Positions 4,429-42,504 of a stretch of 64,000 nt of DNA are shown in pieces. Under the pieces are notes generated by a model, which made no database searches, was not told the DNA's origin, and was given only the letters and a program-made list of their open reading frames with translations. Position numbers and translations under genes: made by a program. The first letter of the stretch is position 1; every line of letters starts with the position of its first letter. Origin of the DNA: Candidatus Amesbacteria bacterium RIFCSPLOWO2_01_FULL_48_25 (GTDB lineage Bacteria > Patescibacteriota > Microgenomatia > CAZETR01 > Amesbacteraceae); assembly GCA_001773695.1 (NCBI GenBank), contig MEXN01000007.1, forward strand, positions 47,388 through 111,387. The letters are read 5' to 3'.

Positions 4429-5028
4429 TCATCGGCTATAAAACTCCACGATTAACTGTTCATCTATAGGGCTGTCGACATCGGTACGAGATGGGAGCGT
4501 GGTTACAACGCCTACTGCTCCCTGACGATCCAGCCAGGCAGGAAGATGGTGGTCGGTACTTTGGAGAAGAGCACTTACTACTGGCGTTTGCATCGCCTTG
4601 GGGCTTAAGGAAATTTGCTGCCCCGTACTAATTTGGAAAGAGGGAATGGTGACTCTTTTCCCATCCAGTCGAACGTGACCGTGGGAAACTAATTGCCGCG
4701 CCATGGCGCGAGTGGGAGCCATTCCCAGACGGTAGACGACGTTGTCCAGGCGCGTTTCTAATAAACGCAGGAGGACTTCGCCTGTCTTGCCGCGAACTTT
4801 AGTGGCCTTCTCAAAGTACTTGCGGAATTGCCGTTCCATTATACCATAAATTCTCTTCGTTTTCTGCTTTTCCCTGAGCCTGACTGCATAATCTGACGGA
4901 CGCCTGGTGCCTTTGGGGCCGTGTTGACCCGGGGGTTGGGTGGCGCGGCGAAGCTTGTTACCACGGCCGAATAGGTCGAAACCTTCACGGCGGGAGAGGC
5001 GATTTTTGGGTTCAGTATAGCGGGCCAT
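4429..5028 (-). CDS. rpsD: 30S ribosomal protein S4
   Basis: MARYTEPKNRLSRREG... followed by an S4 domain. Confidence 0.95.
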   Translation of the reverse strand: MARYTEPKNRLSRREGFDLFGRGNKLRRATQPPGQHGPKGTRRPSDYAVRLREKQKTKRIYGIMERQFRKYFEKATKVRGKTGEVLLRLLETRLDNVVYRLGMAPTRAMARQLVSHGHVRLDGKRVTIPSFQISTGQQISLSPKAMQTPVVSALLQSTDHHLPAWLDRQGAVGVVTTLPSRTDVDSPIDEQLIVEFYSR

Positions 5029-5066
5029 AAATTATCCTTCGACTTCGCTCAGGATGACACTACGTG

Positions 5067-5543
5067 TCACCATCTAAAATGGGCGAAGGCTTTGTTGGCT
5101 TCGGCCATGCGGTGGGTATCTAACTTTTTCTTGACAGCAGCGCCTGAGTTGGCTGCGGCTTCGACTATTTCGGCGCAGAGTTTTTGGGCAAAAGTGGGAT
5201 AAGTGCTGTTGGGACGGGCGAGAGTAGCCATCAATAGCCAACGAATGGCTAAGGAGTCACGGCGATCTGCCCGGACCGGAGTGGGAACCTGGTAGGCCGC
5301 ACCACCGATTCTTCGGGAGCGGACTTCCATTTGGGGCCGGATATTTTCAATTGCAGCGAGAAAGAGGGGCAAGGGTTCTTGTTTGGTTTGAACTCCAAGG
5401 AGTTCAAATGCCTTATAAACTTGTTTTTGGGCCACGGCTTTTTTACCGTCACGCATGGAGCGATTGATCAACTGGGTAACTAGGGAATGATGATAAATCG
5501 GGTCTGGGACAGTCAATTTTTTGGGGGCTGGTTTACTTCTCAT
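5067..5543 (-). CDS. rpsG: 30S ribosomal protein S7
   Basis: S7 family sequence runs from MRSKPAPKK... The ORF-track N-terminal extension overlaps rpsL, so the start is placed at the internal Met. Confidence 0.9.
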   Translation of the reverse strand: MRSKPAPKKLTVPDPIYHHSLVTQLINRSMRDGKKAVAQKQVYKAFELLGVQTKQEPLPLFLAAIENIRPQMEVRSRRIGGAAYQVPTPVRADRRDSLAIRWLLMATLARPNSTYPTFAQKLCAEIVEAAANSGAAVKKKLDTHRMAEANKAFAHFRW

Positions 5544-5550
5544 ATTTTTT

Positions 5551-5985
5551 TTAGGATGCCGTGGCGACACTGGGGCCGACGGTTGCTTTGGTGCCGTAGC
5601 GAGAACGGCCTTGCTTACGGTTTTCGACTCCGATGGCGTCGTACTTGCCACGAACGATATGGTATTTAACTCCGGGTAAATCTTTAACTCGACCGCCACG
5701 AATCATAACGATGGAGTGCTCGGCTATGGTGTGACCGATACCGGGGATGTAGGCTGTGACCTCACTAGAATTGGAAAGACGAACACGGGCGATCTTTCGA
5801 AGGGCCGAATTGGGTTTTTTGGGAGTCATTGTTTTGACTATAGTAACTACTCCTCGTTTAAAAGGATTGAAACCTTCGGTGAAACGGCGGGACTTGGAAT
5901 TGAACGACCGACGGAGGCTGGTAGCCTTGATTTTTTTGGTCTTGGCCTTTCTGCCGTGACGGATAAGTTGATTGATTGTCGGCAT
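5551..5985 (-). CDS. rpsL: 30S ribosomal protein S12
   Basis: [12 protein letters not shown]... and KKPNSALRK motifs. Confidence 0.95.
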
Positions 5986-5996
5986 ATGAGAGGGGA

Positions 5997-8900
5997 TTAT
6001 TGTACCAATTTGGCTCGCTCGGGGCTAGTTGGTATAAGCCGGCCAATAATGACGTTTTCTTTGAGTCCAATTAAAGGATCGATCCGGCCTTCGATGGCCG
6101 CGTCGGCCAATTGGGAGGTGGTTTCGATAAACGAGGCGGAGGATAACCAGGATCCGGTTTTGAGGGCGGCCCGGGTGATGCCCAAAACTACAACCTGGGC
6201 AGTGGCTGGTTCGCCGCCGGCGGCTAAAATACGGGCATTTTCTACCTCGAAGCCAGTGCGGTCGATAATATCTCCGGGCAGAAGAGTAGTATCTCCTTGG
6301 GAGAGGACCCGAACCCGGTCGCTCATCTTTCTGACAATTACTTCGAAATGTTTGTCGTGGATGGGCACGCCCTGGGACTCGTATACCAATTGAATCTCTT
6401 CGATGAGGTATTCCTGGGCACCCCTGAGGCCACGAATTTCCAATACTTCTTTAATATCTAATGAACCGGTGGCAAGTTGAGTTCCTGAGTCGACCAGATC
6501 TCCATCGGCTACTTTAAGCTCGGCAGTAAGGGGAATAATATATTCGCGTTCGTCGACAGGTTTGACTGAAGTATTTCGAATCCTAACCTTGTAACCGGAA
6601 TCGGTCTGGGTGACCTCGACCCGCCCGGAAATTTCAGCCAGAGGAGCTACTAATTTGGGAGTCCGGGCTTCGAACAGTTCTTCGATTCTGGGTAGCCCTT
6701 GGGTGACGTCGATGCTGCCTACGGACAGACCACCCCGTTTACCGTGTAAGGTCATTTGTGTTCCCGGCTCGCCGATACTTTGGGCGGCAATGACGCCAAC
6801 CGGGTCGCCAATTGATGCTTGGGCCATGGCACCTAATTGCCAGCTATAGCAGGTAGCGCAAAGGCCGTATTTGGCGTTACATGTTAAAGGCGAGCGAACA
6901 ATTACTTCATTTACTGACTCGGTGTTGATCTGAGATACCTTGTCCTCGTCAAGAACCGTCCCTGCCGGAATGAGGACTTTTTTAGACTTGGGAGAAACTA
7001 TGTCGGAAGCCGTAACGCGGCCAAAAATCCGGGCCGGGAAAGACTTGGCCCTACGGCCGGACCGGAAAATGGAGAGACCGGAAGTGGTACCGCAGTCTTC
7101 CCGGCGGATTATGGCGTCGTGGGCTACGTCTACCAAGCGACGGGTGAGATATCCGGCGTCGGCAGTACGAATAGCAGTGTCGGACAAGCCCTTGCGTTCG
7201 CCACGAGCGGCAGAAACATATTCGAAAGTGGAAAATCCCTCCCGATAGTTACTTTTTAGAGGCAGGTCGACGATCCGGCCCAAGGGGTCAACCACCAGGC
7301 CGCGCATGGCGGAGAGTTGCTTGACCTGTTCACGGGAAACCTTACCCACCTGAGCATCCACCATGAGATGAATGGGGTTAGTTTGATCAATTAATTTCCA
7401 GGTATTGTCGGCCAATATATCCGTGGTTTCCAGCCAGGTTCCTTGGGTGAGGCGTTTTTTCTCCTCGGCGGTAATTAACCCTAATGAAAAGTTTTGTTCG
7501 ATTTCAGCAACTTTGCGATTGGCCCCCGAAATAATCTCGGTTTTGTCCGGCGAAATAACACAGTCGGTAATGCTGACCGAAAGACCGGCTATGGTTCCGG
7601 CCCAGAAACCTAAAGATTTAATATCGTCGATCAGCTTGACGATTACTCCGGGATCGGTCTCGCCGAAGAGGCGGAAAGCCTTGTTGAAAATGGCCACGAC
7701 GGTGGAACGGCGGACGGGTTCGTTTACAAAACGCAGAGGTTCGGGTAGAACCTCGTTAAAGAGCAAGCGGCCAACAGTGGTTTCCACTAAGTGACCCTCT
7801 TGACGGACAAGAACTAGTTGGCGCAATTTGAGAATACCGGTGTGGTAGGCCAGAATGGCTTCCGCGTCTGAGGCCATGGGGGTGGAAGCACTTGGAATTT
7901 GGGAATCTACCGAAGTGAGGTAGTAATTGCCCAAAGCCATTTCTTTGGTGGAAGGAATAGTGATAGGCGTACCGTCGGCCGGTTTTCGAAGATTATTTTG
8001 AGGCATCATGGTGGCAATCACTTCGGCGATAGCCCCCTGGCTTAAAGGAATATGAACGGCCATTTGATCACCGTCGAAATCGGCGTTAAAACCGGGACAA
8101 ACACAGGGGTGGATGCGGATGGCCGAACCCTCAATCAAAATGGGATAAAAGGCCTGGATAGATAACTTGTGCAGGGTAGGGGCCCGATTTAGTAGCACCG
8201 GGTGGTCGCGGGTGATGTCTTCCAAAATATCAAAAACTTCGGGGGGGCGGGTTTCTAGCAAATTCTTGGCTGATTTGACGTTTGGCGCCAGACCCTTAAC
8301 AATCATTTGGCGTAAGACAAACGGCTTGAACATTTCCAGGGCCATGTCCTTGGGGAGTCCACATTGATTGATCTTGAGCTCCGGGCCGACGACGATGACC
8401 GAACGGCCGGAGTAGTCCACCCGCTTGCCCAAAAGGTTTTGACGGAAGCGGCCCTGCTTGCCCCGCAACATGTCCGAAAGAGATTTGGAATGAGCGCTGG
8501 TCGGCAGACGAGTGACCCGAGTGTGTTGGGAAGAGTCGATTAGAGCATCGACGGCTTCCTGGAGCATGCGTTTTTCATTTCTCAAGATTATTTCCGGGGC
8601 TCCCAAATCAATGAGGTGCTTAAGGCGGTTGTTGCGATTTATGACTCGGCGATATAGATCGTTTAGGTCACTGGTCGCAAAGCGGCCCCCGGAGAGCTGA
8701 ACCATGGGACGCAGGTCGGGAGGAATAACAGGTAAGATCTTGATTATCATCCAGACGGGATCGATGCTGGCGCGGCGCAAGCCGTCCACGACTCGAAGGC
8801 GTTTGGTGGCTTTAATGTGGCGTTGTCCGGTAGAATTGGCTACTTCCTCCCTAAGGGTGGCTGAAAGGCTGCCGAGATCTAGAGTTCTGATAACATCCAA

Positions 8901-9743
8901 AATGGCTTCAGCGCCCATGCCAACGCCCACGAATTCCAATGCGTCGTATTCATTGAGTTTGGTGTATTCCTCTTCGGTGATCAGGGAGCCGACGTGCAAG
9001 CTCTGAATAATTTCTATCAGCCGGTCGTAAAGATCGGAAATTTTCTCGGTTTCTGCTAATTCTTGGTCTTTGAGAGCTTGTGTTTGCTGGCGGAATTTGA
9101 GAGAGAGCTGGTCTGTAGCCATGACTTGGGCATCGATATTTAAGGCTTGGCCTGAAAGCTCGGCTACATCTTTTTGTTCTTCTTTTCGGAGAGCAGTTGC
9201 TTGGGCCGTTAGTGATTTATGGATTTCATCTTTTTTTCGACTAGCATCTTTGGCTAATCGTTCGATAGCTAGGTCTTTTTGCTTGGAATCGCAGGAGGTA
9301 ACGATGTACTGGGCAAAGTAGATAACTGATTCCAAAGCTTTGGGGGAGACGTCCAAAAGCAGGCTTAGGCGACTAGGGGCTCCTTTGAAATACCAAACGT
9401 GGGCTACCGGGGAAGCTAGGGTAATATGACCCATGCGCTCGCGGCGAACCCGAGAGTGGGTGACTTCCACACCACATTTGTCACAGGTGATGCCTTTGTA
9501 TCGAATGCGTTTGTATTTACCACAGTAACATTCCCAGTCTTTGACCGGACCAAAAATGCGTTCGTCAAATAGTCCGTCTTTTTCGGGCCGAAGAGTGCGG
9601 TAGTTGATGGTTTCCGGCTTGGAGATCTCGCCATATGACCAAGACTTGACCACATCGGGAGAAGCCAATTTGAGTTGGAGCGACTGAAAGTCGGTAACGT
9701 TTTTGAAAGTGTCCTGATGATCTGGATTAATTTTGGCTGGCAT
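5997..9743 (-). CDS. rpoC: DNA-directed RNA polymerase beta' subunit
   Basis: 1248 aa. Zn-binding CxxC...CxxC region near the N-terminus. The NADFDGD catalytic motif is present. Confidence 0.97.
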
Positions 9744-9748
9744 AATTT

Positions 9749-12700
9749 TTAGACGTCCGGTTGGTCTTTAACAGTTACTTTGTCATCTACAGCTAAGGTG
9801 GACACCTGAGTGGCAGTTGTATCGTCGGCGATATTTAAGGGAGGGGTGGCGGCCGTGTCATCGGTAACCTTGGTTTGTACCCCGATGGGTACCACTTGAA
9901 GACTGAGGCTCTGCAACTCCTTGACCAGAACATTAAATGATTCCGGAACGGTTGACGTGGGGATGTCCGTGCCCTTGACGATGGCCTCGAAAGCTTTGGC
10001 ACGGCCGATAACATCGTCGGACTTGATGGTGAGCATTTCTTGAAGAGTGTGGGCGGCTTTGTGGCTCTCCAAGGCCCAAACTTCCATTTCTCCCAGTCGC
10101 TGACCGCCCATTTGAGCCTTGCCTCCCAAGGGTTGTTGAGTCACCAGTGAATATGGACCAGTGGAACGGGCATGAGTTTTGTCTTCCACCATGTGATGGA
10201 GTTTGAGAATATAGCCCACCCCAACCACCGTCGGTTGTTCATAAGGCAACCCGGTGCGACCGTCGTGGAGAGTGATTTTCCCGCTGGTTGGCAAATTGCT
10301 GGCTTGCATTTCGATTGCGATTTGATCCTCAGAAACTTTTTCAAACGCCGGGATGGAGACTTTGCGATGCTGTTTGTCCATCGCCCAGCCCAAACGGGCT
10401 TCCAGAAGTTGGCCCAAATTCATACGGGCCAGAACTGATAAGGGGGAAATCATTATATCTATGGGGGTTCCGTCGGGAAGGTAGGGCATGTCTGCCACGG
10501 GAACGATTTTACTGATGACTCCCTTGTTGCCGTGGCGTCCAGCCAGTTTGTCCCCGACACTGATTTTTCTGATTTGGGCAACCTTGACAATCACCCGCTG
10601 GTTGACTCCAGGGGGGAGCTCGTCACCGGCTTCTTTACTAAGTATATGTATATCGACTACAATCCCCCGCTCTCCGTGGGGCATGCGCAAAGAAGTGTCC
10701 CGGACGTCCCTGGCCTTCTCACCAAAAATGGCTCTGAGCAGGCGCTCCTCGGCCGAAAGTTCGGTCTCTCCTTTGGGGGCAATTTTGCCAACTAAGATAT
10801 CATTTGGGCTGACTTCAGAGCCGATGGCGACAATACCTTGAGCGTCCAGATGAGCTAGATAATTTTCACCGATATTGGGGATGTCACGGGTAAGTTCTTC
10901 CGGACCGAGTTTGGTGTCTACCACGTCTGCTTCATGCTCCTCGATATGAATGGAGGTTAAGAGATCTTCGGTGACTAATCTATCCGAGATAACAACAGCG
11001 TCCTCGTAGCCCAAGCCATCGTAAGAGTGATAGGCGATGACTAGGTTTTGGCCGAGGGCAATTTCGCCGTTTTGGCAGGAGGGTCCGTCAATAATGAGTT
11101 GGCCCTTGGCGATTTTCTGGCCGGTTGTGACCGTGGGAACTTGATTGAAGCAGGAACTTTGGGCCGTCCGTTTGAACTTGGTCAGATAGTAAATTTCGGT
11201 GTCGCCTTTGGAAACTATATTTTCAGTGTCCGGCGGAGGAGAGGCCGGCTTTTTATCCAGTTTAACAATGATTTTGGAAGCATCCACAAAAGAAACCGTG
11301 CCGGCATGACGAGCATAGACACACCAGTCCATGGCGGCTGCTACTGTTTGTTCCATGCCAGTGCCTACAACGGGGCTCGCGGGCTTAAGTAAAGGAACAG
11401 CTTGGGTTTGCATGTTGGCGCCCATCAGTGCCCGATTGGCAGCGTCGTTGGCTAGAAAAGGAATGAGAGAGGCGGAAGTGCCAACCACTTGGCGAGGTAC
11501 AGCATCTATATATTCCACCTGGCTAGCGGGTCCTTCGGAAAAAACGCCTTGATACCGGATGGGAAGCCACTCGTCTTGGATATAACCCTTTCCGTCCACT
11601 CGGACGTCAGAATGGGAGATGCGAAAGTTGGCCTCGTCGTCGGCAGTAAAATAGACAATTTCATTACCCAATCTGACTCCAGTGGTATCGGAAATTAGTT
11701 TTCGGTAAGGTGCTTCCAGAAAGCCATAGTCATTGACCCGGGCATAGAGGGCCATATAAGTGACAAGACCGATATTGGCGCCTTCTGGCGAACGGACCGG
11801 ATCGATACGACCATATTGGCTGCTATTAACGTCACGGATACTAAATGAGGCGCGTTCCCGGGTAATGCCCCCCCGGCCCATGACGGTCAGACGGCGGAGG
11901 TGATCGATTTCAGATAAGGGGTTGGTTTGTTCCAGAATCTGGGACAGTTGAGAGCTTCTAAAAAACTCGTTGATGGAGGCGATAACAGGACGAGCGTTGA
12001 CTAACATAGCCGGGACGACTAAATCTTCGGGCGAGACTAAACTCATCTTTTCTTTGATAGCCCGCTCGAGGCGCAGAAGCCCGTCTCTAAATGCGGTTTG
12101 GTTGACCAGCTCGCCTACCCGGCGGATGCGGCGATTACCCAGGTTGTCTATATCGTCAATGTGGCCCTGATCATTTTGTAGGCCAATAAGGTAGGAAATG
12201 GTGGCGACTAGATCGTCCCTGGTCAAAACGGTTTTATCTGAGGTGAGGTCCAGGCGTTTATTGAGTTTATACCTACCCACCTGGCCCAAATCATAGCGGC
12301 GAGGGTTGAAAAAGAGATCATAAAGGAGGCGTTGGGCGTTTTCCAGAACAATCGGCTCCCCGGGGCGCATTTTCTTGTATATTTCGATCAGGGCTTCCTC
12401 GGTAGTTTTGGTAGTATCTTTGCCCAGCGTCGCTTCCAGATAATGGTGATTGGCGTTTGTATCTACAGCGGCAAACAGGCTGGTTAGTTGGTCCGGATCA
12501 GATAGACCCATGGCCCGCAGGAGAGTGGTAACTACAAACTTGCGCCGGCGGTCGATACGAACAGAAATGACATTTGACCTAGAAATTTCGAACTCCAGCC
12601 AGGTGCCACGGATAGGGCGAAGTTCAGCAGTATGGAGCATCCGGCCTGAGGCGGCATCTAGTTCGGCGCCAAAATAGGCCCCTGGGGAACGGACGACTTG

Positions 12701-13087
12701 GTTGATGACCGCCCGCTCTACCCCATTGACTATAAATGTGCCCCGGTCGGTCATCTGGGGTAGTTCGCCTAAGTAAACTTCGCCGGAAGTGGTTTTGCCG
12801 GTTTGCTTATTGGTAAGCTTGGTCGTGACACGCAGGGCTGCCGAGTAAGTAAGTCCTTTTCGAAGGGCTGTCTGGGGGGTGATTTTGGGCTTTTCGATCG
12901 AGTGAGTGGAAAATTCCAGTAACCAATTTTTACTGGTAAAATCTTCGATGGGGGAAATTTCAGCTAGATTTTGAGGAATGCCCTTGGTCAAAAACCAGGC
13001 CCACGAGTCGAGCTGAACCCGGGTGAGGTTGAGAGTTGGGAGATTTGTGTATTGTCTCCCCCAATATATGCGCTGGTTGGCCGTCAT
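9749..13087 (-). CDS. rpoB: DNA-directed RNA polymerase beta subunit
   Basis: 1112 aa with conserved rpoB blocks throughout. Sits immediately upstream of rpoC. Confidence 0.97.
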   Translation of the reverse strand: MTANQRIYWGRQYTNLPTLNLTRVQLDSWAWFLTKGIPQNLAEISPIEDFTSKNWLLEFSTHSIEKPKITPQTALRKGLTYSAALRVTTKLTNKQTGKTTSGEVYLGELPQMTDRGTFIVNGVERAVINQVVRSPGAYFGAELDAASGRMLHTAELRPIRGTWLEFEISRSNVISVRIDRRRKFVVTTLLRAMGLSDPDQLTSLFAAVDTNANHHYLEATLGKDTTKTTEEALIEIYKKMRPGEPIVLENAQRLLYDLFFNPRRYDLGQVGRYKLNKRLDLTSDKTVLTRDDLVATISYLIGLQNDQGHIDDIDNLGNRRIRRVGELVNQTAFRDGLLRLERAIKEKMSLVSPEDLVVPAMLVNARPVIASINEFFRSSQLSQILEQTNPLSEIDHLRRLTVMGRGGITRERASFSIRDVNSSQYGRIDPVRSPEGANIGLVTYMALYARVNDYGFLEAPYRKLISDTTGVRLGNEIVYFTADDEANFRISHSDVRVDGKGYIQDEWLPIRYQGVFSEGPASQVEYIDAVPRQVVGTSASLIPFLANDAANRALMGANMQTQAVPLLKPASPVVGTGMEQTVAAAMDWCVYARHAGTVSFVDASKIIVKLDKKPASPPPDTENIVSKGDTEIYYLTKFKRTAQSSCFNQVPTVTTGQKIAKGQLIIDGPSCQNGEIALGQNLVIAYHSYDGLGYEDAVVISDRLVTEDLLTSIHIEEHEADVVDTKLGPEELTRDIPNIGENYLAHLDAQGIVAIGSEVSPNDILVGKIAPKGETELSAEERLLRAIFGEKARDVRDTSLRMPHGERGIVVDIHILSKEAGDELPPGVNQRVIVKVAQIRKISVGDKLAGRHGNKGVISKIVPVADMPYLPDGTPIDIMISPLSVLARMNLGQLLEARLGWAMDKQHRKVSIPAFEKVSEDQIAIEMQASNLPTSGKITLHDGRTGLPYEQPTVVGVGYILKLHHMVEDKTHARSTGPYSLVTQQPLGGKAQMGGQRLGEMEVWALESHKAAHTLQEMLTIKSDDVIGRAKAFEAIVKGTDIPTSTVPESFNVLVKELQSLSLQVVPIGVQTKVTDDTAATPPLNIADDTTATQVSTLAVDDKVTVKDQPDV

Positions 13088-36842: not shown

Positions 36843-36925
36843 GGCTGGTTATCAATTCTACCCCCGGAGTGCTAAGTTGACAATTGGAAATGACAAATCA
36901 CTTTTAAATTATTATCCTGTAGTAG

Positions 36926-37234
36926 TTGGTTGAACCGATTTTCAGAGGGATAGAAAGAGCGTTTTTGATTGACCAAATAAGAAAAGTTGATAGACAAATG
37001 GGTTTCCATCAGGGGGCGGCAAATACTTTTGGTATAGCTGCTTCAAAAGAAGGCGTAGGGGGTTGGCCTAAAGTTTACTTCGGGAACGAGAGGAGAGCTC
37101 TTGGTCGGGACATCAAAAAAGAGGGGGGGGAGCTGGGCCGGCTTTTGAATTCACAGGCATTAAGACTTCGGGCTATGGAAGCTGTGATGGTATGGTCGGC
37201 AGTGGCAGGATTGGCAATTGGAATGTTGAAATAG
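36926..37234 (+). CDS. Hypothetical small protein with a C-terminal TM helix
   Basis: 102-aa ORF ending ...RLRAMEAVMVWSAVAGLAIGMLK. Confidence 0.25.
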   Translation: MVEPIFRGIERAFLIDQIRKVDRQMGFHQGAANTFGIAASKEGVGGWPKVYFGNERRALGRDIKKEGGELGRLLNSQALRLRAMEAVMVWSAVAGLAIGMLK

Positions 37235-37329
37235 AGCTGCGGGAGATATTAAAATTACTTCCTACTTCGACAAAAATTTTGAGAAGATGGGGTTTGAGGT
37301 GTTATAATTTCGGCTATGTCTGCATTTGA

Positions 37330-37491
37330 ATGGCGAGGGCGGCAATAAAACAAAAGAATGAGTTTCGGGAGAGAGCACAAAATGCTGAAAGGAAGGAGTG
37401 GAATCTGGTAGTATTGGGGGGCACGATAAGCGGTGTTTTCGCTGGAGCTGCTGTGTATCTGGCTAGTACGCATATTTTCGGGTGGTGGTAA
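37330..37491 (+). CDS. Hypothetical 53-aa tail-anchored membrane protein. Not in the ORF track; found by manual translation.
   Basis: ATG at 37330 reads MARAAIKQKNEFRERAQNAERKEWNLVVLGGTISGVFAGAAVYLASTHIFGWW*. An extended -10 TGtTATAAT lies at 37292-37300. Confidence 0.25.
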   Translation: MARAAIKQKNEFRERAQNAERKEWNLVVLGGTISGVFAGAAVYLASTHIFGWW

Positions 37492-37541
37492 TCAAGTGAG
37501 GGGTTTGATACAATCGAGAGGAGCCGGATGGCTTTATTTTT

Positions 37542-39692
37542 ATGGCGGCGGGAGATATTAAGACTACAAATCGGGATGTGCCGTTGGATCGGGTGCGGAA
37601 TATTGGGATAATTGCCCATATCGATGCGGGGAAGACGACCACCACGGAGCGGATTTTATTTTATACCGGAAAGAGCTACAAAATCGGAGATATCGATGAG
37701 GGTGACACCCAAATGGATTGGATGGCGCAGGAAAGGGAGCGGGGAATTACGATCGTTTCGGCGGCAACGACGACATTCTGGACTGTGACCGACCCCAATT
37801 CCCCGGTGGGCAACGAATCGTTTAGGGTAAATATTATTGACACACCGGGACACGTGGACTTTACGGCGGAAGTAGAACGATCTTTGCGGGTATTGGACGG
37901 TGCGGTGACAGTACTAGATGCAGAGGAGACGGTGCAGTCACAAACTGAAACGGTATGGCGACAAGCTGATAAATACAAGGTTCCGCGGATTATTTTTGTG
38001 AATAAAAACGACAAACTGGGAGCCAATTTTGAGGGAACAGTTAAGGCTATTATCGAAAGACTAGGAGCAAACCCTGCAGTGATGGCATATCCTATTGGGG
38101 CTGAACAATCATTTCGCGGAGTAGTATTACTATTGGAAAAGAAGGCTTTGATTTGGCAGGGAGACGAGACGGGGGCAAAATTTACTGAAGAAGAAATACC
38201 GACTGACATGGCTGAAGTGGTAGAAAAGTGGCGGGCAAAACTAATTGAGCAGATTTGTGAAACGGATGACACTCTTTTAGAAAAATTTCTGGCGGGCGAA
38301 GAGCCGACCGTACCAGAGTTGAAAGCGGCAATGCGCCGGGCGGTAATTGCTTATAAATTGGTACCGGTCTATGCGGGCGCGTCATTACGCAACAAAGGAG
38401 TGCAGCCGATGCTGGATGCTATCGTAGAATACCTGCCCTCGCCTGTGGACATAGACCACGTCAAAGGAGTGGCGCCAACAACGGGTGAGACAGTTTTTCG
38501 AAAAACCGTGGTGGAGGAACCGTTTTCCGGGCTGGCTTTCAAAATCCAGACCGATCCGCATGTGGGAAGATTGACTTATGTGCGGATCTACTCCGGAAAA
38601 CTTTCGGCCGGGCAGTCGGTGTGGAATGCTTCCAAGCAGAAAGAAGAGCGGATCTCCCGGATGCTTCTCATGCATGCTAACAAGCGAGAAGAAATTGATG
38701 CGGCTTATGCGGGGGAAATCGTGGCCTTGGTCGGACTGAAAGAGGCAACAACGGGAAACACCCTATCCGACCGGAGTCACCCGATAATATTGGAGTCGAT
38801 AACATTTCCGGAGCCGGTAATCTCACTGGCCATCGAGCCCAAAACTAAATCCGACCAGGAAAAGATGGGGTATGCCCTAAACAAATTATCGGATGAAGAT
38901 CCGACGTTTAAGATCAAGACCAATCACGAGACTGGGCAGACGATCATATCCGGAATGGGGGAACTGCATCTGGAGATTATCGTGGACCGGATGAAGCGGG
39001 AGTTTTCTGTGGAGGCGGATACTGGGGCGCCCCAGGTGGCATATAAAGAGACTATTAAAAAGATGGCCGAGGGAGAGGGAAAATATATCCGTCAGTCCGG
39101 TGGGCGGGGGCAATATGGACATTGTTATATCCGGATTGAACCACAAACCCGGGGAGTTGGATATGAATTTGTGGATGCGATTAAAAGCGGGGCGATTCCG
39201 AATGAATTTATTCCGGCTGTAGAAAAGGGTGTGCGTGAAGCGATGGAGAATGGTGTACTGGCTGGGTTTCCGACTGTAGACATGAAGGTGACTTTGTACG
39301 ATGGGACTTATCACGACGTCGATTCCTCGGAAATGGCGTTTAAGATTGCCGGGTCGATGGCATTCCAGCATACGGCCAAAATAGCCGACCCAGTTTTGAT
39401 TGAGCCGGTAATGAAGGTGGAAGTATCCACCCCAAACCAGTTCATGGGAGACGTGATTGGGGACTTGTCCTCAAAAAGGGCCCAGATATTGGGAACGGAC
39501 AAGCGGGGGCATCTGACGATTATTAATGCCTATGTCCCCTTGGCCGAATTGTCCGGGTACGCGACGAAGTTACGGTCGCTGACCCAAGGGCGGGCGTCAT
39601 ATTATATGGAGCCGTCGCATTACGAAGAAGTGCCGCGAAACATTGCTGAGGGAATAATCGCCAAATCTGGTAAAATGGCTGCAAATGGCTGA
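37542..39692 (+). CDS. fusA: Elongation factor G
   Basis: 716 aa. [15 protein letters not shown] and DTPGHVDF. Ends with a TGA stop. Confidence 0.97.
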
Positions 39693-39885
39693 CTTGGTTA
39701 AAAAAAGGTTGACTCGGGGGACGGAGAAAAAATTGGTGGGGGTGTGCTCTGGTATTGGAGATTATTTGGGAGTTGATCCGGTGCTCGTTAGATTGGCATG
39801 GGTACTGATAACTGTGTTTACGGGAATATTTCCAGGGCTGATTGCCTACATACTGGCCGCTTGGGTGATGCCGGAAAAGAAGTAG
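39685..39885 (+). CDS. PspC-domain small membrane protein
   Basis: [49 protein letters not shown] matches the PspC N-terminal domain. The start overlaps the fusA stop. Confidence 0.6.
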
Positions 39886-39889
39886 AGGA

Positions 39890-40126
39890 CTAGGGCAGGT
39901 CAGTAAGAAAGACGTGAACCGCGGCTCCGGTAACAAGGGAGACACCTGGAACAGCGTAGTTGTCACCTCTGGCTTTCCAGAGTTCGAGTTGATCAGGGGT
40001 AATGTTGTGTAATCGGACTTCTTCTCCAGTTTTAATTATGATGACTGCGTGTTTTTCGGGAGGTAAAGCGGGAGAGCCGGCGCCACAACCAAAGCCTGGT
40101 CCTTCAATTCGAGACATCGGGGCCAA
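39890..40126 (-). CDS. Hypothetical protein
   Basis: 78-aa ORF. GFGCGAG near the N-terminus. No family recognised. Confidence 0.3.
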   Translation of the reverse strand: MAPMSRIEGPGFGCGAGSPALPPEKHAVIIIKTGEEVRLHNITPDQLELWKARGDNYAVPGVSLVTGAAVHVFLTDLP

Positions 40127-40180
40127 AAAAAAGAGCCGGGTGGCTCTTTGAAATAAAATAATTTGTCCAGGTAGTCATGA

Positions 40181-40570
40181 ATGGCTCCTGGGAGTAAAGT
40201 ATATCACATGAAGTGGAGCGATAGGTTTTGGGTGACAATGCTCGTTCTTCTGCCTTTAATCGGAGTGTATCGGATAGGATATTATTTTTGGTACCACAAG
40301 CAGGTAATTGTAAAACCCTTAGAAGGAGAGTGGAAAAACTATGGGAAATGTAAGAGGGATAGCGAGTGTGCAAAAACCGCTAACCCTAATTGCAGCGGGT
40401 GCGGGTGCGGGGTGTATATAAATCGAGAATCTTTAGGAAATTATATGGATCAACTTAAGAAACAGTGTCAGGGAGAGTCGGGGCAGGTGTGTTTCGGGGC
40501 AGTATGCCCACAAACCAATGCGGCGTGTATTGAGGGATATTGCGTGGGGAAGAGAATTGAGTCCCAGTAA
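40181..40570 (+). CDS. Cysteine-rich membrane-anchored/secreted small protein
   Basis: N-terminal signal-anchor FWVTMLVLLPLIGVY. 10 Cys in the C-terminal 70 aa (CKRDSECAKTANPNCSGCGCG...CIEGYCVG). Confidence 0.5.
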   Translation: MAPGSKVYHMKWSDRFWVTMLVLLPLIGVYRIGYYFWYHKQVIVKPLEGEWKNYGKCKRDSECAKTANPNCSGCGCGVYINRESLGNYMDQLKKQCQGESGQVCFGAVCPQTNAACIEGYCVGKRIESQ

Positions 40571-40621
40571 TTGACCCTTGCAAAGGGAAGCTGGGATGCG
40601 ATAGAATCGTTACCGCATCAT

Positions 40622-41800
40622 ATGGCGACATTTCAAAGAACCAAACCGCACGTCAACATCGGAACTATTGGTCATGTGGACCATGGGAAGACGACTTTAA
40701 CTTCGGCTATCACCATGGTTTTGGCCAAAAAGGGGATGGCGACTGCCAAAAAGTACGAGGACATTGATTCGGCACCGGAAGAAAGAGCCCGAGGAGTGAC
40801 GATTAATTTATCCCACCAGGAGTATGAGACGGAGAAGAGGCACTATGCCCACATCGATGCGCCGGGTCACGCCGACTACATCAAGAACATGATTACCGGA
40901 GCTGCCCAAATGGACGGGGCGATTTTGGTAGTATCTGCCGCGGATGGGCCTATGCCCCAGACCCGAGAGCATATTCTTTTGGCCAAGCAGGTGAATGTGC
41001 CGGCGATCGTAGTGTTTTTGAACAAATGCGATATGGTGGATGACGAGTCACTTTTGGATCTGGTCGAGATGGAAGTTAGGGAGCTACTGACTAAATACGG
41101 CTACAAGGGGGACGAAGTGCCCATAATCCGGGGATCGGCACTAAAGGCTACTGAGGGGGATGCCAAGTATGAAGAGAAAATAATTGAACTGATGAAGGCG
41201 GTCGATGAACACGTGCCAACTCCCGTACGGGAACTGGACAAGCCGTTTTTGATGCCGATTGAAGACGTGTTTTCTATTAAAGGCCGGGGGACGGTGGTAA
41301 CCGGCCGGATTGAGCGGGGCGTGGTCAAGCTAAACGAGACTATTGAAATTGTAGGAATTAAGGCTACTAAGTCGACGGTTGTAACCGGGGTAGAGATGTT
41401 TAGAAAGCAACTTGATGAGGGTCAGGCGGGAGACAATGTGGGAGTCTTGCTGCGCGGAATTGAAAAGGACGACGTGGAAAGAGGGCAAGTGCTAGCTAAG
41501 CCGGGGAGCATTACCCCGCACACCGAGTTTGAAGCCGAAGTGTACATCTTGAAGAAGGAAGAGGGTGGACGGCACACTTCTTTCTTCACTGGGTATAGGC
41601 CGCAGTTTTACATCCGGACAACGGATGTGACGGGCGAGGTGACCCTCGCTTCTGGCGTCGAGATGGTCATGCCCGGAGATAACGCCAAGATGAAAGTGAA
41701 GTTGATCGTGCCAGTCGCTATTGAAGAGGGATTGAGGTTTGCTATTCGCGAGGGCGGTAAAACCGTGGGTGCGGGAGTAGTGACCAAAATTATTAGTTAG
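40622..41800 (+). CDS. tuf: Elongation factor Tu
   Basis: Start placed at [27 protein letters not shown]. The track ORF begins at an upstream TTG. Confidence 0.97.
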
Positions 41801-42134: not shown

Positions 42135-42374
42135 ATGCCGGAATACGATGTGGTTGTAACTACGAATGGTAACTACGCAAAGGCCACTCTTGACGGTTTT
42201 GTTCTAACCGCTGCGGTCATAGACGGTGGAGTTGTAAAGAGGTTTTGGTTTGACGGAGCAACACTGAGGATGGAAACGCCTGATATTTCTCATGAGGTAG
42301 CGAAGGCTTTGATGTTGGGATTAAGACTTAATTCCCGAGTCACTAAAGTGGAACTCGAACCTAAAAGGGTTTGA
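42135..42374 (+). CDS. Hypothetical 79-aa protein inserted between rpsJ and rplC
   Basis: Intact ORF MPEYDVVVTTNGNYAKATLDGF... No family recognised. Confidence 0.4.
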   Translation: MPEYDVVVTTNGNYAKATLDGFVLTAAVIDGGVVKRFWFDGATLRMETPDISHEVAKALMLGLRLNSRVTKVELEPKRV

Positions 42375-42482: not shown

Positions 42483-42504
42483 AGCGCCGACGGGCGCTTT
42501 TTTT
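42483..42504 (+). terminator. Intrinsic terminator or attenuator hairpin (AGCGCC-GACG-GGCGCT followed by TTTTTTT), 14 nt upstream of the rplC ATG
   Basis: Perfect 6-bp GC-rich stem, 4-nt loop, 7-T tract. Lies within an approximately 100-nt leader. Confidence 0.55.

Follow-up and report, generated by a model that had tools for sequence, protein, structure and literature searches.

In Escherichia coli, tufA is for the most part expressed from a transcript shared with fusA, and older literature places secondary tufA promoters inside fusA itself. Both genes belong to the str operon, laid out as rpsL-rpsG-fusA-tufA in E. coli and Salmonella (PMC6735719), and in the translation supercluster of Gammaproteobacteria multigene insertions and terminator-promoter overlaps have been described between operons (Brandis, Cao and Hughes, 2019; PMC6735719). 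Here, we describe the fusA-tuf interval on a 64,000-nt stretch of DNA (hereafter the window; contig MEXN01000007.1, positions 47,388 to 111,387 of the forward strand) from Candidatus Amesbacteria bacterium RIFCSPLOWO2_01_FULL_48_25, a member of the Patescibacteriota. As in E. coli and Salmonella, tuf lies downstream of fusA and appears able to use a promoter of its own, but this putative promoter is intergenic and not inside fusA, and 929 nt intervene that are filled by three small genes: a PspC-domain open reading frame (ORF), an oppositely oriented ORF (orf78) and a cysteine-rich ORF (orf129). Our preferred reading, to which we give a probability of about 75%, is that the gap is an accessory-gene slot at a transcription-unit boundary, with fusA and tuf forming separate units and tuf having its own conserved promoter. 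The situation resembles that reported by Brandis et al. in that insertions accumulate at operon boundaries of an otherwise conserved cluster; whereas those are classical boundaries, the Amesbacteria boundary, read from sequence alone, would fall within a set of genes that classically makes up one operon, and in a lineage of the Candidate Phyla Radiation (CPR).

To place the window among its relatives, fusA loci of 80 species-representative genomes were compared, with fusA, tuf and rpsJ located in each, and further Amesbacteria states were taken from contigs found through homologues of the gap proteins (loci are designated by L numbers). The first-pass annotation had regarded fusA-tuf adjacency as near-universal, which proved overstated for Patescibacteria: at least 400 nt separate the two genes in 18 of the 69 species in which both were found, with cargo that includes Maf, an MFS transporter, a D-Ala-D-Ala ligase (Ddl), PIG-L, GH18 and UPF0047. 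The fusA loci closest to that of the window are all from Amesbacteria bins. Here, the gap is just 84–97 nt in L001, L002, L003 and L007, a comparison that bears out the same annotation's view of the small genes as inserted and marks them as lineage-specific additions. Five other Amesbacteria loci have gaps of 0.6–2.9 kb with unrelated genes, namely a serine hydrolase and two unknowns (L004), two NUDIX proteins and two unknowns (L005), DUF3105 and a 23S-IVP-like protein (L006), DUF3105 (L008), and two AAA_14/DUF4143 ATPases (L009). When the three gap proteins of the window were searched against the 80 representative loci by tblastn, none matched at E<0.1. Among the additional contigs, the order is fusA, HigB-like, RHH, NUDIX, a 120-aa ORF, orf129 and tuf in L081; fusA, orf129 and tuf in L089; fusA, orf78 and tuf in L091 (RIFCSPHIGHO2_02_FULL_47_9); fusA, a 60-aa ORF, orf78 and tuf in L093; and, in the partial L096, fusA and orf78 followed by a HigB-like toxin gene. 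Altogether, both ends of the gap are visible in 15 Amesbacteria lineages; it is empty in four and occupied in 11, by ten distinct gene sets. In a rough neighbour-joining tree built on the fusA C-terminal region, the orf129 carriers group together, while empty and filled states are otherwise interspersed. Since ten contents occur in eleven filled gaps and the empty states are scattered among them, the gap, as judged from these comparisons, is a recurrently re-used accessory-gene slot, and the window is one state of it, not the product of a single insertion.

The arrangement in the window is no assembly artefact, because no fewer than 24 contigs, from ENA and JGI assemblies, carry it. Moreover, the sister species represented by L087 and L088, whose fusA is 89% identical, has the same layout of fusA, PspC, antisense orf78, orf129 and tuf. 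In comparison with this species, dN/dS is 0.07 for the PspC ORF (88% identical in L087) and 0.15 for orf78 (71% identical), for which fusA at 0.04 and tuf at 0.015 serve as reference. For orf129, dS reached saturation whenever the window was one of the pair; where an estimate could be made, between its other homologues, dN/dS was 0.17–0.22. By their conservation in sister lineages and a dN/dS of 0.07–0.22, the three ORFs, whose coding status the first-pass annotation had made dependent on such a comparison, are genuine genes under purifying selection; the gene coordinates, promoter hexamers and fusA-stop overlap that it gave were all found correct. No credible Rfam match was obtained, either for the whole window at gathering scores or for positions 39600–40700 at E≤5.

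The element that would allow such turnover is found directly ahead of tuf. In the window, a −35 hexamer TTGCAA (40578–40583) is followed after an 18-nt spacer by the −10 hexamer TAGAAT (40602–40607), which lies 14 nt from the ATG at 40622. This pair matches the sigma-70-type consensus at 9 of 12 positions, and its spacing is within the accepted 16–18 nt. All 15 Amesbacteria lineages share the TTGC of the −35 and, in the −10 (TA.AAT), its T, A, A and T; the spacer measures 17 nt, or 18 nt in the window, and an A/T-rich block with a C-run precedes the −35. Neither the spacer nor the sequence after the −10 is conserved among the 15. Conserved hexamers amid drifting spacer and flanks are the footprint expected of a functional promoter, and all inserts fall between the fusA stop and this block. 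Conservation therefore strongly supports the block as a promoter footprint that predates the insertions, which would explain why new DNA is tolerated at the slot. It is also the sole block conserved upstream of tuf, in line with the earlier proposal that tuf has its own promoter with these hexamers. The translation start is the ATG; the longer ORF from a TTG at 40571 is not conserved, and in relatives the N-terminus begins with MA(T/V)(F/Y).

Accordingly placed, the promoter would give tuf a very short leader. The −10 lies 9–17 nt from the ATG in eight lineages including the window (9–13 nt in L009, L081, L006, L008, L091 and L093), 22 nt in one and 36–54 nt in six. With transcription starting about 7 nt past the −10, the tuf mRNA of the window is predicted to have a leader of 7–8 nt and would thus be short-leadered, not strictly leaderless; the first-pass description of an almost leaderless start is better given as one of a very short leader. 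Leaderless and short-leader mRNAs occur in bacteria (e.g. PMC3160421 and PMC8459731), and tuf shares with them a −10 close to the start codon and the lack of a Shine-Dalgarno sequence; as a difference, the tuf −10 is 14 nt from the ATG, which predicts an untranslated region (UTR) of 7–8 nt and not the absence of one, and the distance among relatives is 9–54 nt. The same layout is seen on the other strand upstream of dnaJ, where a promoter-like TTGTCA-17-TAGAAT (36855–36883, minus strand) stands 14 nt from the ATG, again with no Shine-Dalgarno sequence. In L001 (10170–10238), L002, L003, L005 and L007, the stretch from the tuf −10 to the ATG contains a short hairpin (e.g. AGTTC-gaaa-GGACT) with a T-run behind it, and lineages with a short tuf leader have no such hairpin. 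This hairpin, which recalls the terminator-promoter overlaps of Brandis et al., may insulate tuf from fusA in these five relatives.

A different account of the same block would be that fusA and tuf form one long operon with the small genes as passengers, tuf being expressed by read-through and the block being conserved as a protein-binding site or RNA element. No strong plus-strand terminator is present between 39692 and 40622, the end of orf129 is 7 nt from the tuf −35 and is not followed by a terminator, and in E. coli the two genes are mainly co-transcribed, all of which would suit such an operon. However, the conserved positions are exactly those of the −35 and −10 hexamers at a 17/18-nt spacing, with an unconserved spacer, the minus-strand orf78 with its own conserved upstream region stands in the path, and five relatives have the terminator-like hairpin and T-run just before tuf. 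We therefore hold a single operon to be unlikely. Several points nevertheless weigh against separate units with a tuf promoter. The motif by itself is not significant, CTTGC-N17-20-TANAAT occurring once in the window against 0.67 expected; read-through from fusA is possible, as no convincing plus-strand terminator is seen from fusA or PspC to tuf; the six lineages with a hairpin or other longer leader (36–54 nt) indicate that regulation at the boundary is not uniform; the fusA tree carries no support values; and we infer promoter activity, the transcription start site, coupling and read-through, with promoter use and start site being read from conservation only.

On the preferred reading of a slot at a unit boundary, tuf of Amesbacteria would be a unit separate from fusA with a sigma-70-type promoter immediately upstream of its start, so that the stretch from the fusA stop to this promoter could gain, lose or swap genes without loss of EF-Tu expression. 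In the window, the PspC ORF would be translated as an appendage coupled to fusA, orf78 would be expressed from a promoter of its own on the opposite strand, by way of a conserved leader, and orf129, just before the tuf promoter, would probably read through into tuf. The features concerned are collected in Table 1.

Table 1. Features of the fusA-tuf interval, with positions in the window
Feature	Position	Strand	Details
fusA, EF-G	37542–39692	+	716 aa; Pfam GTP_EFTU, EFG_III, EFG_IV, EFG_C
9-nt repeat AAATGGCTG-c-AAATGGCTG	39673–39681 and 39683–39691	+	Within the final fusA codons
PspC-domain ORF	39685–39885	+	66 aa; PF04024, E=2e-21
orf78/75	39890–40117	-	75 aa from ATG 40117, the conserved start; ORF reaches TTG at 40126 (39890–40126, 78 aa)
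Terminator-like hairpin AAAGAGCC-accc-GGCTCTTT with T-run	40125–40149	-	Ends 7 nt before the orf78 ATG
orf78 upstream region	40165–40206	-	CCAGG-N15-CCTGG (40167–40191); −10-like TGaTATACT (40198–40206)
orf129, cysteine-rich	40181/40208–40570	+	129 aa from 40181 or 120 aa from 40208; 10 Cys
tuf promoter block	40564–40607	+	A/T-rich and C-run block, −35, spacer, −10
tuf, EF-Tu	40622–41800	+	392 aa; Pfam

The split between fusA and tuf is not the only departure from the classical layout. In the window, fusA heads its own unit with no rpsL-rpsG upstream; these two genes follow rpoC on the minus strand (about 5067–5985), and, in contrast to E. coli and Salmonella, they are 32 kb from fusA and on the other strand. 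The contiguous one-strand series rpsL-rpsG-fusA-tuf is thus absent from the window, and the separation of rpsL and rpsG from fusA means that the classical str operon is also split after rpsG. As for their surroundings, rpoB, rpoC, rpsL, rpsG and rpsD lie together at 4429–13087 (minus strand), and fusA is divergent from dnaJ-nusA-infB. The dnaJ-fusA spacer (36843–37541, 700 nt) has an unusually strong GC skew of 0.3–0.44, a promoter-like TTGAGA-18-TATAAT with a TG (37279–37308) and small unsupported ORFs; it gave no Rfam match.

At the start of the slot, the ATG of the PspC ORF is 5 nt ahead of the fusA TGA, which creates an 8-nt overlap (ATGGCTGA). No GGAGG-like Shine-Dalgarno sequence precedes it, whereas operon-internal genes of the same genome have one. 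This combination of stop/start overlap and missing Shine-Dalgarno sequence is that of a coupled pair, and we infer that the PspC ORF is translationally coupled to fusA. The ATG that it uses lies within a GCAAATG at the fusA end (39683–39692 in the window), and the corresponding ATG starts unrelated genes in different species, these being PspC (window and L087), DUF3105 (L006, about 10136–10148, and L008) and the 60-aa ORF (L093). Such repeated use fits a recurrent termination-reinitiation coupling to fusA. As for the protein, the PF04024 match that had been anticipated was indeed obtained, at 75.8 bits against a cut-off of 25 and with the whole model (1–58) covered, which makes it a PspC-domain family member; it is a membrane protein, with a hydrophobic helix at residues 40–58. 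However, it falls short of the scores required of a bona fide PspC (TIGR02978, 54.9 against 104 bits; PRK10697, 33.3 against 136 bits). It shares the PspC domain with PspC of the Psp envelope stress system, but while the latter is about 120 aa, the protein in the window is 66 aa, about half the model length, and its score is sub-equivalog. PspA and PspB domains are absent from the neighbouring genes with Pfam hits in the locus tables. The PspC ORF appears to encode a stand-alone PspC-domain mini-protein.

The fusA 3′ end also bears on the idea that a small mobile element or genomic islet brought in all three genes at once, with the 9-nt repeat as its target-site duplication. The first-pass annotation had described this repeat (39673–39691) as a tandem duplication shared by the fusA and PspC ends and fitting a pattern of junction duplications. 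The two copies are separated by a c and so have a 10-nt period, and are not strictly tandem; moreover, both fall within the C-terminal fusA codons K-M-A-A-N-G-stop. Relatives that lack PspC have homologous codons, reading K-V-A-A-N-A in L006 and L093 and K-V-T-A-N-A in L008, and at the nucleotide level the fusA end is AAAGT.GC.GCAAATGCTTAA in L006 and L093 and AAATGGTTGCAAATGGCTGA in L087. Near-tandem exact 9-mers number 3 in the window against 1.03±0.95 in Markov shuffles, and this repeat alone is not significant. With ancestral fusA codons and a count at chance level, we rejected the repeat as an insertion scar. The toxin-antitoxin genes in the slot of L081 and L096, and the speed with which its content changes between species, are what a mobile islet might produce. 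Against it, the slot has none of the features sought for an integrative element or genomic island: no integrase or transposase, no flanking direct or inverted repeats in a target-site duplication search, and no foreign composition, the GC content of the three gap genes being inside the host range. Nor was there a PHROG or PADLOC match, and in relatives the genes are found one at a time or differently grouped, as with orf129 alone in L089 and orf78 alone in L091. Joint arrival as an islet is thus extremely improbable.

The second gene, orf78, converges on the PspC ORF, with 4 nt between the two stops and no terminator between them. Its 75-aa product matches hypothetical protein A2634_00585 (NCBI) from Amesbacteria bacterium RIFCSPHIGHO2_01_FULL_48_32 at every residue and is predicted to be soluble, with a fold model that takes the form of a small SH3-like β-barrel. 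No match was found in Pfam, NCBIfam, PHROGs or PADLOC, and a profile search of PDB sequences was also empty. A 120-aa minus-strand ORF of L081 was considered as a homologue and rejected, as the similarity is not significant (E=0.27).

More conspicuously, the leader of orf78 is conserved in six lineages, namely the window (40118–40206), L087, L091, L093, L096 and L097; two of these, L091 and L093, keep it without having orf129. From 5′ to 3′ it consists of the −10-like hexamer, the inverted repeat CCAGG...CCTGG, an A/T-rich linker, a hairpin, a T-run and the ATG. The hexamer is constantly 5 nt before CCCAGG, and the hairpin, AAGAGCC-N4-GGCTCTT followed by 7–8 T, has an invariant stem and a variable loop. 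A covariation test gave no covariation and was uninformative, the stems being invariant. In the window the hairpin (40130–40149) has an 8-bp stem, a 4-nt loop and a T-run, and thus the GC-rich stem and T-run of a terminator, but its position does not suit one, since it stands ahead of the orf78 ATG and the window has no minus-strand gene upstream of it. The orf78 gene abuts tuf in L091 and L093, and there the palindromic TTGCAA that forms the tuf −35 is, on the other strand, 17 nt from the orf78 −10-like hexamer. A similar hairpin and T-run stand before the start codons of two further genes in the window: directly before the fusA ATG (GGAGCC-ggat-GGCTTT with a T-rich run, 37520–37535) and 20 nt before the rplC ATG (AGCGCC-gacg-GGCGCT with a T-run, 42483–42498). 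For this reason, the layout may be generic to the lineage and not a specific attenuator.

These observations could be taken to tie the small genes to translation, for instance with orf78 as an SH3/KOW-like factor or autoregulator at the fusA/tuf boundary and its leader as an attenuator. Its confinement to the fusA-tuf gap, always in antisense orientation, the conservation of the terminator-like hairpin in the leader of six lineages, the sharing of the TTGCAA palindrome with the tuf −35 in L091 and L093 and the predicted SH3-like barrel are all compatible with this; the hairpins before fusA and rplC point to the more general layout just mentioned. We judge a link to translation very unlikely. 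That orf78 and its leader form an Amesbacteria-specific regulatory module with a new attenuator, whose SH3-like protein would act on tuf expression or translation, is likewise a long shot.

The third gene, orf129, encodes a protein with a hydrophobic N-terminal segment, as a membrane anchor, and a predicted extracytoplasmic domain with 10 Cys. The ATG at 40208 is the more probable conserved start, since L087 lacks an ATG where the upstream one would be. Homologues are 87, 73 and 53% identical, with a further one at 50% in L087, and in every case where the neighbourhood can be seen they stand immediately before tuf. When 1.84 billion representatives were searched with a profile, the family grew to 46 proteins at E≤1e-3, mostly of 100–160 aa and with a hydrophobic N-terminal part ahead of a Cys-rich domain; among 15 members, all 10 Cys and one asparagine are conserved without exception. 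Here, TPR-rich proteins among the profile matches were set aside as probably spurious repeat matches. One distant relative, P0011, lies away from both fusA and tuf, and a scan of metagenome contigs with the orf129 alignment found L081 again and nothing else. The protein has no match in Pfam, NCBIfam, PHROGs or PADLOC, a profile search of PDB sequences was empty, and an AlphaFold2 model built from 3 sequences (pLDDT 54) was unusable. Given where orf129 ends, its transcripts probably continue into tuf.

Additional DNA is also seen farther downstream. The tuf-rpsJ spacer, which is 6–76 nt in all Amesbacteria, carries 0.7–1.9 kb extra in other lineages of Patescibacteria (L016, L035, L051, L055, L059, L065, L069 and L073), where it takes the place of the fusA-tuf spacer as the enlarged one. 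In the window, a 79-aa ORF (orf79; 42135–42374, plus strand) between rpsJ and rplC is a second insertion, this time inside the S10 cluster; it has no match in Pfam, NCBIfam, PHROGs or PADLOC and was found in same-species contigs only.

The slot is a case of ordinary local gene turnover and not a new system, and what was found there does not overturn current understanding. It does offer a clean example of accessory-gene turnover within a small CPR genome, in the gene cluster that bacteria conserve most, and the putative promoter that tuf has of its own suggests why this turnover is tolerated. For bins of Patescibacteria, fusA-tuf adjacency should not be assumed when synteny is judged or contigs are scaffolded. 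Moreover, the conserved tuf promoter provides a consensus that can serve for promoters of a lineage not yet in culture, and two uncharacterised families of small proteins are brought to attention, one an Amesbacteria-specific SH3-like family and the other a wider family of membrane-anchored proteins with 10 Cys.

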